Source: Oceanispirochaeta sp.
Lineage (GTDB): Bacteria; Spirochaetota; Spirochaetia; DSM-2461
Length of the DNA: 64,000 nt
Assembly (NCBI GenBank): GCA_963663385.2
Contig: CAXXXD010000003.1
Coordinates: 1,536,001 to 1,600,000, forward strand
Direction of reading: 5' to 3'
Below, in pieces: positions 36,001-39,000 of this stretch. Position numbers: made by a program. Position 1 is the first letter of the stretch, and each line of letters begins with the position of its first letter.

Positions 36001-39000
36001 CTGTCTCTTCACTGAGAAGTTCAAGGGAGTTAAGCTGATCAAAAACTTTCCGAACACTGTCCAACTGGCTTTGAATCTCACCTTCAAGGGATTCATCACC
36101 CTCTTCTACGGCCAGTCCAAAGAGTTCCATCAGGTCCTCCATATCAGTAACCAGTTTTTCCCATGGTTCATATTTATTTTTCAGTCTTTTTAACTGTGCC
36201 AGTTTTTTTTCGGCACTTTCGCGATCATTCCAGAAATCGGGATCTCCCGATTCGATTTCCAGTTCACGGGCTGCGCTTTTCAGTTCAGCCGTGTCAAAGT
36301 CGCCTCCAGGTATCCGTAATCTCCCCGTTAAGGGATTTCAACTGAGATGAGATATCACTTAGCATTTGTGCCTCCGTTATTTTTATCTTTTAAAATATTG
36401 CGTCTCCACCGTTTTTCCGTTAATGAAGTAATAACAAGTTTCCCTTCTATAGGATATTGATAGATTCTGATAGAATCATAAAAATCCGTTGCCCTGTCCA
36501 GATCCAGTTTTAAACGGGACAAATTGTTCTCGTTTATACTCAGGGATTCAAATGTATTTTTTTGAATTTGTTTAAATCCGTAACGGAAGAGCAAGTTCTG
36601 AACAACCTTTTCACTATCTTCGTTCCCAAGATCAATTACAATGGATACAAACATGATCATTATACTCTATTTGCGTCTTGCCAGGCTGTCAATACACAAT
36701 TAAAACAATGTGACTTCACCGCTGCTTGCGCCCTCTTCTTCCAGAGCAAAAGAACTTGTAATATCGGCCTTTTTCTTGTGAATAAAAATCGTAAACTTAT
36801 CAATAAGATCCTTTATTTCGTTTCCCCGCAGTTTCCACTCCGAATAGGGACTGGCCGCAAGGGCATGATCGAGTTTTTCCTTGTATTGATTCTTCTGGGT
36901 ATCTACAATCCCGGTTACATCGTACAGTTTTTTCATAAGATCCTTCATTGTACGCAGATCTTTTCTTGTCATCTGATAGAATTCATCAAAAGCCTGTCCG
37001 GCTTTCACAATTTCCAGGGTACAGTAGTCTACTTTCTCATGGGAATCCGAAACCCCTTCAAGCCCTTTTCTCAAATCTACTATAAATTGTTCAAGCTGGG
37101 CTGCATCATCCGTAAAATCCTTGAAATAGTCGTTAAATAACCTGTCGGTACTTTTCCTGAAATCACCAATGATGCGTGTAAGAACTTCAACATTCTGTTC
37201 TATCGAGTCTGTACGATTATTAATATTCTCAATAATGAAATTCATATTCTCCAGATGTGGGAGTTTGGCTGCCTCAACCCGACTGGATATGTTGATTGTC
37301 TTGACCCAGTTGATTATCCGCACAAATCCGTTGGATGATTCTTCCAGCTTACCTATCTCCTTTAAAAGATGACTCAGATTCTTTTTAAGAGACTCCCTGC
37401 TGAACCCTTTACGGAATATTTCCGAATTCTGAGAGATGGATTTCTGAAACTCCCGTATCTTCAGAGAATAGGAATCATTCCCTGACTGATTCAGGAAAGT
37501 CTCTCCGGATTTCTGAATGGTCAGCATCATTTCGGACAGATCATCCGATTTTTCCTGAAAGAGTTTATAGGTTTCATCAATTCCCTCTCCGATTTCACTC
37601 AGGATATCTTTACAGAACGAGTAAACCTGGTATTGATATGTCAGATAATCCAGCTCATCCTCTGTACTGACACTGCTTACCTCCAATCCTTTCTGAAACG
37701 AAAGGATTACATGATCAATGGACTGCCTTACAATATCGTGCTTCTGAACCTCCTGAATAATATGGTAAAGGGGGTCTCTGATACCCCCGACTCCTTTCTG
37801 GAGTTCTGATACAAGGATATGGATTTTATCCTTATACTCCTTGATAAGCTTCAGCATATTATTCAGATTTTCAGCGATTATATCCATTGCCTGATTCAAA
37901 TCGGATTTATCACTGTCAATATTGGACAGAAAGGAACGGAATACCCGATCCATATTTTCACCATGGTCTTTCAGTCTGTTACTTAGATAGGCTGAATCCT
38001 TCGATACCGCCTGAAGTTCTTCCGTTATATAGGGAAAAGCACCTCCGTTCTTACCAGCCTTGAGAGCGGTTACCATGGCATTGAGCGAAATCAGTTCCAG
38101 CTCTGCCGAATCATCCTCGATAACCTTGATATGTTCCTCAAAGAGGCTGGATTTTTTGAGTTCAACCTCCAGATTATCAAGAAAGCCGGAATCTTTTTCG
38201 GATAGTTTCGTAAAGATGATACCTTCCGAACTGACAATATTCTGAAGATAGGCAACTGATTCCTCCATGTCATCCAGCCCGCAGAAAGCGTTCTTCTTCT
38301 GCATATCCGAAGTATCTAGTGACCTGAATTTCTCATCCATCAAATCAAGAATCCGGGGATAGTTATCCGCCATCCCCATATAGACATTTCCGAGTTCCGC
38401 AACGATGTATTCCAGATTTTTAACTATTCTGATTTGATTTTCATTATCCATTTGCTGCTTTCCTGACAACTTCCGGAGCAATTTTATTCAGGGGAAGAAC
38501 AGAGTGTACCGCTTGCCTTTTGATTGCTTCATTGGGCATTCCGAAAACAACGCAGCTGGCTTCATCCTGGGCGATATTGAAGGCGCCGGCCTCTCTCATT
38601 TCATCCATGCCCCGTGCTCCGTCATCACCCATTCCGGTCATGATGACTCCAATCGCATTTGGTCCCGCATAGCGGGCGGCCGAACGGAACAGAACATCGA
38701 CCGAAGGTTTATGGCGACAGACAAGGGGGCCTTCCTTGGTTTCAACATAATACCGCGCCCCCTGACGTTTCAGGAGGAGATGGCGGTTTCCGGGGGCAAT
38801 CAATGCCCGGCCACGGTATACTACATCATTGTTCTCCGCTTCCTTTACTTCGACCTGACAGAGACCGTTCAGGCGTTCTGCAAAGGACTTTGTAAAATGT
38901 TCCGGCATATGCTGAACGATGACAATACCCGGCGAATTTACCGGCATGGCTTCCAGAAAGACCCTGAGAGCTTCCGTTCCGCCTGTAGACGCCCCGACAA

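Follow-up and report, generated by a model that had tools for sequence, protein, structure and literature searches.

Many spirochaetes appear to have put a defence protein to routine cellular use, probably on RNA. The protein is encoded by a free-standing Cas2-like gene, here called the solo gene, located in the window under study (the whole stretch of 64,000 nucleotides of Oceanispirochaeta DNA that was analysed). We conclude with high confidence that it is a domesticated Cas2, independent of CRISPR, because it forms its own clade, is vertically inherited, evolves under purifying selection, shows no association with Cas1, has cas1-free flanks and is expressed; the preliminary description of the locus is well supported in this respect. 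The best overall explanation, to which we assign a probability of about 0.5, is a Cas1-independent Cas2 dimer that would act on RNA and whose gene lies behind the promoter of prfB.

The solo gene and its Cas2 fold

The solo gene occupies positions 36355..36654 on the minus strand, where an open reading frame read directly from ATG to TGA, and supported by profile matches and a structural model, encodes 99 amino acids. Residues 1-88 form the conserved core, and residues 91-99 a lineage-specific tail that overlaps prfB. The prfB gene (release factor 2, RF2; 35255..36365, minus strand; TIGR00020, 498.5 bits, cut-off 370) starts with an ATG at 36365, so that the junction ATGCTAAGTGA contains an overlap of 11 nt. 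Its Shine-Dalgarno (SD) motif, read from the sequence as GGAGG (36371..36375, minus strand), falls within the solo-gene tail. The prfB frame runs for 22 codons to the +1 frameshift site CTT TGA C at 36299-36293 and then continues for 346 codons. Both the overlap and the frameshift site had been described before and were confirmed by direct reading.

Ahead of the solo gene, on the same strand, lies a promoter with 10 of 12 consensus matches, composed of a -35 box TTGACA (36687..36692) and, 17 nt past it, a -10 box TAGAGT (36664..36669) placed 9 nt ahead of the ATG. The start lacks an SD motif and has a leaderless or 3-nt leader geometry. The upstream gene, MCP-like and the last of a chemotaxis cluster (36700..38481, minus strand; PF00015, 35.9 bits), adjoins the solo gene only in genus-level relatives of the window (3 loci). 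No terminator was found after it in the window, so read-through may add to solo-gene expression. Behind prfB comes a CheY-like response regulator (34893..35258, minus strand; PF00072), in an order that is the same in loci outside the class, followed by a co-oriented housekeeping run on the minus strand (27691..34900) comprising a PEGA protein, ftsY, an unknown gene, lolC/E-like, lolD-like and again lolC/E-like genes, and an mcsA-like gene. Within this run FtsY alone passes its cut-off.

The CRISPR loci of this genome lie elsewhere. Its two cas1/cas2 pairs and two arrays were found only on contigs C1 (339-345 kb) and C2 (72-74 kb), and the solo gene is on contig C3, apart from both. No CRISPR array was detected on C3 or in the window at 26-48 kb, where no Rfam match was obtained either. 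Reading frame, profiles, model and locus positions thus agree with the earlier account of a 99-residue Cas2-fold gene outside two CRISPR-Cas loci that each have their own cas2.

The window protein passed the Pfam CRISPR_Cas2 profile (PF09827; 31.3 bits, cut-off 23.8), matched the PADLOC Cas2 model (E 3.7e-9) and failed the TIGR01573 equivalog (21.7, under the cut-off of 24.5). At E<=0.05, PF09827 was matched by 31 of 48 family members; PF20803, the PaaX central domain, was matched by one of the 48 (E 0.03). The nearest named homologues (88%) belong to Oceanispirochaeta and carry the label CRISPR-associated Cas2, in line with the earlier remark on database naming.

Structure prediction from a 48-row alignment gave a model with a mean pLDDT of 92.6. 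The predicted fold has strands at residues 2-8, 28-31, 34-37 and 61-69, helices at 12-24 and 42-55, a hairpin at 72-79/82-87 and a disordered end (95-99). Among the Foldseek matches listed, all were Cas2 or Cas1-Cas2 entries, so that the Cas2 matches reported earlier from Pfam, PADLOC and Foldseek were all reproduced. A VIA structural search comparing 48,161 chains placed 1zpw first (Z 11.3, rmsd 3.1, 70 aligned), and the top 13 rows were all Cas2 (Z 11.3 to 8.6). These were followed by PaaX (Z 7.9), VapD (Z 7.2 and 6.8) and ACT-type folds (Z about 7), values near 7 being in the range of common ferredoxin folds. BPSL1038 was not among the VIA or Foldseek matches listed, and an Atlas search with PF09827 left out reached scores of 0.81-0.83 only. 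By its predicted structure, the window protein is a Cas2 derivative, nearer to Cas2 than to VapD, and would most likely form the usual Cas2 homodimer with paired Asp residues.

Vertical descent and independence from CRISPR

A search with the family profile returned 59 matches among 1.84 billion representatives, indicating a discrete family. In a family-balanced sample of 251 genomes of the class (completeness at least 90%), the solo gene was present in 115, always in one copy, and was not found in 136, with two whole families lacking a match (0/22 each). In a sample of the phylum it was matched at E<=7e-32 in 56 of 401 genomes, of which 14 lie outside the class; three families of this sample were without a match (0/75, 0/38 and 0/17). 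Five weak matches were dropped from the counts, one (E 6e-4) that the profile did not recover and four that proved to be canonical cas2 beside cas1.

Forty-four solo proteins, left from 130 after thinning at 70% identity, were combined with 24 canonical Cas2 sequences in a phylogenetic tree over 95 columns. All solo proteins fell on one side of a branch with 100/100 support and a length of 1.47, and the 11 from outside the class formed a 100/100 subclade among them. A second tree with 49 rows showed the same clade separation. The identity of solo proteins tracks that of RF2 (r 0.83 over 120 gene pairs; none of 999 permutations was as high), and discordant pairs, with solo identity >85% and RF2 identity <72%, were absent from these 120. 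Of the 12 splits in the solo tree that reach a support of at least 90, nine recur in the RF2 tree and none contradicts an RF2 split that is itself supported (54 rows). The median dN/dS over 173 close pairs was 0.069, with a maximum of 0.26; the gene is under purifying selection. These results show that the solo gene is a vertically inherited, single-copy, non-essential housekeeping gene.

Collections of phages, plasmids and viral contigs held no match to the family, and a mobile origin was rejected on this ground. No fused forms were found among 7997 longer candidates, which is a weak test.

It is highly improbable that the protein is a toxin of the VapD kind, working in a toxin-antitoxin or dormancy module. 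This reading takes up the VapD structures in the VIA search, a G-F and D..Q spacing that resembles the VapD branch, and the fact that VapD is itself a Cas2-fold endoribonuclease (PMC7180214, available text). However, the Cas2 scores are well above those of VapD, the solo gene is single-copy, vertical and missing from phages and plasmids, and no small neighbour was conserved when ORFs of 80 aa or more were clustered, the gene having a promoter before it and prfB after it. Its transcription was also high in growing cultures of a relative (see below).

The relation to CRISPR was assessed in the 251 class genomes, of which 46 carried the solo gene and Cas1, 69 the solo gene only, 59 Cas1 only (Cas1 being present in 105 in all) and 77 neither. 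The odds ratio of 0.87 indicates no association, with the limit that related genomes are not independent. Of the 55 carriers in a treponeme-rich set, 38 had Cas1 and 17 did not. The earlier claim that most carriers have no cas1 therefore depends on sampling: it holds in the family-balanced sample (69 of 115 without Cas1) and fails in the treponeme-rich one (17 of 55). What holds is the absence of an association with Cas1 rather than a majority without it. Three one-contig genomes contain the solo gene and lack Cas1; two of these are closed and have neither cas1 nor any further cas2 match. Within the fetched flanks of the solo gene (1.5-4 kb), cas1 occurred in 0 of 182 loci, and the cas1 loci listed each had their own adjacent cas2.

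It is accordingly very unlikely that the protein serves CRISPR in trans, as a spare Cas2 or as a decoy damping spacer acquisition by any acquired Cas1. Its profile and fold are closest to Cas2, and Cas1 is common enough in these lineages, in the class sample as among the treponeme-rich carriers, for intermittent contact. Set against this are the missing Cas1 association, an intact solo gene in closed genomes without cas1, the neighbouring cas2 of the cas1 loci listed, the loss of protospacer-contact features (described below) and a slow vertical evolution unlike that of canonical Cas2.

Position ahead of prfB

In the class, prfB is the next gene on the same strand in 36/36, 79/80 and 19/19 genome loci (partly overlapping sets) and in 17/18 metagenome loci. 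The two exceptions are contig ends, the 80th genome contig stopping 221 nt after the gene. Outside the class, prfB was adjacent in none of 29 loci (0/14 from genomes, 0/15 from metagenomes), where neighbours were varied and without cas genes, some flanks being short. The position directly upstream of prfB, previously reported across families, is therefore a property of the class and does not extend beyond it. In the loci outside the class (again with some short flanks) the solo gene has an SD motif and no such promoter, and no neighbour with an established role in RNA biology was found to be conserved; prfB lacks the frameshift there and sometimes lies directly behind a TTGACA promoter.

The preliminary description also regarded the solo gene and prfB as one translationally coupled unit. 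In-class loci were de-duplicated to 95 for junction and promoter statistics, 92 of which were used for overlap and SD counts. The two genes overlap in 4 of the 92, with a median gap of +21 nt (range -11 to +230), and the prfB start has its own SD-like motif in 91. Among the 95 loci the solo gene ends in TAA 41 times, in TAG 30 times and in TGA 24 times. Since overlap is rare, the prfB SD motif independent and the stop codons mixed, conserved translational coupling is unsupported as a family property. The 11-nt overlap reflects a C-terminal extension across the prfB GGAGG, found chiefly in the family to which the window belongs. The mixed stop codons also led to the rejection of autoregulation by way of a stop specific to RF2 upstream of prfB.

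The unit common to the class is transcriptional, with one promoter and a leaderless-type first gene. A conserved arrangement of TTGACA, 16-18 nt, TAnnnT and 5-11 nt to the ATG, without an SD motif, was found in 88 of 95 in-class loci; in the window genome the same geometry precedes 164 of 3694 of its own ORFs and 157 of 28,128 internal ATGs. This is a sigma-70-type promoter with the solo gene directly behind it in leaderless geometry. RNA data were available for a relative in three stranded runs of one study, which give coverage rather than mapped start sites. Read depth over the solo gene was 477-544, 151-177 and 198-215 in the three runs and continued across the junction into prfB at 470, 149 and 183; it was 1.5-4.7 in the bin that holds the solo ATG and 0 further upstream. 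The ends of the molecules gather 17-33 nt into the solo gene and, on the other strand, 27 nt into the divergent gene. This coverage is consistent with a leaderless bicistronic or longer message, whose exact start we infer.

Some non-carriers of the class retain the prfB promoter. In four (L146-L149), a TTGACA-17-TAnnnT promoter is kept 20-80 nt ahead of prfB with the usual divergent neighbour in place, and in a fifth (L140) the prfB ATG is preceded at 6 nt by a -10-type box. No solo-gene remnant was found within 1.5 kb of prfB in 20 in-class non-carriers, one locus being shortened, and four non-carriers of the window's family lack both the solo gene and the chemotaxis block. Because these non-carriers keep the promoter, and prfB outside the class can lie behind a TTGACA promoter, we assign this promoter to prfB. 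The gene orders of non-carriers and of loci outside the class likewise indicate that the solo gene is older than, or separable from, its position at prfB. The prfB frameshift site was present in 15 of 20 non-carriers and missing in one carrier; control of the frameshift by the solo gene was rejected, since gene presence and frameshift are unlinked. An RNA element inside the solo gene was also rejected, as synonymous positions vary freely and Rfam gave no match around the locus.

These data bear on whether the protein is a direct partner in termination, binding RF2 or terminating or stalled ribosomes, or tuning the prfB frameshift, with the operon mirroring the partnership. The position next to prfB at practically every in-class locus, over many families, co-transcription, an evolutionary rate close to that of RF2 and a conserved basic hairpin would all fit. 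Yet we consider it unlikely, given that the link to prfB is absent outside the class, that the RF2-specific stop TGA is not preferred, that the gap between the genes varies widely, that the frameshift site occurs without the solo gene and is missing in a carrier, and that the promoter serves prfB equally well when the solo gene is absent. A spirochaete-specific translation factor, a domesticated Cas2 made constitutively as a dimer from a leaderless message, whose Asp8 groove and basic hairpin would bind the ribosome or another structured RNA and which would act in termination or ribosome quality control with RF2, is a comparably doubtful proposal; if true, it would be the first case of a core Cas protein taken into the translation machinery. 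Complex prediction for the solo dimer (residues 1-91, two copies) with the RF2 body scored 0.00 twice with controls that did not fold, an outcome that bears on binding in neither direction.

Conserved residues, possible function and known systems

Residues were compared in 73 in-class and 13 out-of-class solo proteins, with 29 canonical Cas2 proteins from the same genome set as reference. The acidic residue at the end of beta1 (D/E8) is kept in 72/73 and 13/13; E36, K49, D60, R63, P68 and W83 are invariant in both groups, with D57, Y65 and Q66 nearly so, and D/E13 is found in 99% and 92%. Among the residues previously listed as invariant, D60, R63, W83 and acidic position 8 (85/86) stand and D57 nearly does, whereas among the 73 in-class proteins R54 is present in only 62%, K81 in 68% and R84 in 55%, and D53 varies outside the class. 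Of the stretches specific to the family, the helix2-beta4 loop, D53-x-x-T56-D57-x-Y59-D60, is the best conserved, and the C-terminal hairpin carries a basic K-W-[KR]-R motif; the net charge of residues 79-92 is +4.5 in-class and +2.5 out-of-class.

At the start of helix 1 the net charge is -1.0 in-class and +0.1 out-of-class, against +2.7 in the 29 canonical proteins, and the metal-site serine of the QxS motif (S33) remains in 6/73 and 0/13. The solo family thus lacks both of these protospacer-contact features. In the available text of PMC10491678, Asp and Ser together make a metal-mediated contact with prespacer DNA, and a role in RNA recognition is proposed for the alpha2-beta4 loop. The available text of PMC9510766 gives the RNase residues of Sso Cas2 as Tyr9, Asp10, Arg17, Arg19, Arg31 and Phe37, which we mapped onto the family by equal Asp-to-Gln spacing, an inferred correspondence. 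Asp10 (D8), Arg31 (K/R29, 92% and 100%) and Phe37 (W/F/Y35, all) are matched; Tyr9 (Tyr7 in 3/73 and 5/13) and Arg19 are unmatched, and Arg17 is at most partly matched, with no Arg among the common residues at position 17. Nuclease activity is uncertain, because only three of the six residues are well kept.

A catalytically dead, ferredoxin-like adaptor dimer with a protein or metabolite ligand, similar to ACT or PaaX middle domains and unconnected with nucleic acids or prfB, would account for the loss of Tyr7, the helix-1 arginines and Ser33 and for the acidic helix-1 start. The family-specific invariant surface (K49, D57, Q66, P68, W83), the PaaX and ACT-type matches and the different gene orders of the clades point the same way. 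We judge it improbable nonetheless: the acidic residue 8 is almost always kept, residue 29 is basic in over 90%, the C-terminal hairpin is net positive, and Z values near 7 lie within the common ferredoxin-fold range.

In the explanation that we prefer, the domesticated RNA-acting dimer, a Cas2 gene departed from the CRISPR adaptation module a single time, early in the history of Spirochaetota, and has since been kept in one copy by vertical descent as a housekeeping gene that is not essential; the data show this part. In the class it lies between the prfB promoter and prfB and, by promoter geometry and read coverage, is read as a leaderless-type first cistron, with prfB translated from its own SD site. 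The dimer would no longer scaffold Cas1 on protospacer DNA, since the helix-1 start has turned acidic and the QxS serine is gone. Its Asp8 groove, together with the conserved loop and basic hairpin, both of them gains of the family, may instead act on structured RNA, and the link to prfB would supply constitutive expression without requiring direct partnership with RF2. Cas2 proteins bind or cut DNA as well, so RNA as the target is a choice among rivals. Judging by the conserved residues, a structured-RNA-binding protein or low-activity endoribonuclease in routine RNA or ribosome upkeep has slightly less than an even chance of being correct.

Components of CRISPR systems are commonly presented as acquisitions from mobile elements and toxins. 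The solo family goes the other way, a core cas gene having become a cellular gene that is inherited vertically. Spacer acquisition can do without the nuclease-type site of Cas2, and the reason for the retention of this site is an open question (PMC6452270 and PMC8987985, available text), of which the family, with its site kept and Cas1 gone, is a natural test. Close relatives that offer natural clean deletions, and a cultivated treponeme lineage with a well-expressed copy, allow the family to be tested directly. The label 'CRISPR-associated protein Cas2' on these proteins in databases inflates spirochaete CRISPR counts.

Our literature search, whose scope was outside subscription papers and supplements, so that a listing in a classification supplement is possible, returned no description of the family. 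The available text of PMC13056227, PMC4331577 and PMC11021501 mentions only cas2 of CRISPR loci, and that of the exaptation reviews PMC8730458 and PMC8987985 names no domesticated Cas2.

Canonical Cas2 (PF09827, TIGR01573; 1zpw, 6k2e, 4es1) differs from the solo family in several respects. The latter has no nearby cas1 or array and no co-occurrence with Cas1, and forms its own long-branched clade with vertical single-copy inheritance. In sequence, YD has become xD, the helix-1 start is acidic and the QxS serine is lost, and YQYP and KWKR motifs have been added. The spirochaete Cas2 of the array-less I-C system of Leptospira (PMC9510766, available text) resembles it in having suspected non-CRISPR roles, together with DNase and RNase activity; unlike the solo gene, it is still in a cas operon with cas1.

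CRISPR-independent proteins with a Cas2 fold are already known, according to the accessible parts of the sources, from VapD (PMC7180214), BPSL1038 (PMC10491678) and the PaaX middle domain (PF20803). The BPSL1038 family of Burkholderiaceae is a precedent, with a Cas2 fold, a catalytic-type Asp and CRISPR-free genomes (PMC10491678, available text). By the description given there, BPSL1038 shares 10-15% identity with Cas2, is closer to VapD, carries a D(X20)SST motif and has a helix at its C terminus; the solo family, in contrast, is found by Cas2 profiles, has no SST in the columns of the beta2-beta3 turn and ends in a beta-hairpin. VapD toxins (VapXD, VapDW) share the Cas2-type ferredoxin fold, the Asp after beta1 and independence from Cas1, but they score lower than Cas2 in the structural search (7.2 and 6.8 against 11.3), and the solo gene has no antitoxin neighbour and is not mobile. 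The PaaX central domain is likewise a Cas2 fold outside CRISPR (Z 7.9), but it is part of a 300-aa regulator, whereas the solo protein is free and of 90-100 aa. The solo family sets itself apart from these systems as a Cas2 recognisable by sequence that stands alone, is not mobile and forms part of a housekeeping operon.

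Gene order upstream of the solo gene

In the window, a chemotaxis cluster (36700-44664) separates an ORF at 44728-46521 from the solo gene, the Cas2-like gene directly upstream of prfB (36355-36654, minus strand). At loci L216-L219, which come from four members of the window's taxonomic family that lack the solo gene, an apparent homologue of this ORF, judged by eye, directly adjoins prfB, so that, if the homology holds, the chemotaxis cluster, the promoter and the solo gene were lost or gained together as one block. Elsewhere (L002-L030), the upstream position is taken on the opposite strand by a divergent gene family encoding proteins of 300-470 aa, which shares a short intergenic region with the solo gene in 78 loci. 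This family is nearly devoid of Pfam matches (a TPR was found in one member), and its gene remains in place where the solo gene has been lost.

The prfB frameshift site and downstream gene

The CTTTGAC frameshift site is absent from prfB of L029, which carries the solo gene, and of L138, L141, L142 and L144, as well as from all eight prfB loci outside the class Spirochaetia. Absence of the site, seen in several lineages, is independent of the solo gene. The position of the CheY-like gene after prfB (window 34893-35258) is also retained outside the class.

Nearby cas genes and database labels

In two related treponemes (G138, contig C34, and G260, contig C3), a cas1-cas2 locus lies ~18 kb from the solo gene, a proximity that looks incidental. 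The assembled record L060, titled Borreliella garinii, contains the solo gene, yet none of the 22 genomes of the small-genome family f5 matched; the title may be wrong. One source names an out-of-class member (L034:3001-3267) 'histidyl-tRNA synthetase', apparently a mis-annotation arising from weak HisS/HisZ matches.

Other features of the window and genome

At window 25101-28152, an mcsA-like gene is followed directly, without an intervening mcsB, by a gene that, judging by its motifs, probably encodes a ClpC-like ATPase. Genome-wide, leaderless-type promoter geometry (TTGACA/-10 directly before the ATG, no SD) precedes 164 of 3694 long ORFs versus 0.56% of internal ATGs, which suggests, at the sequence level, that a few per cent of the genes in this genome are leaderless.
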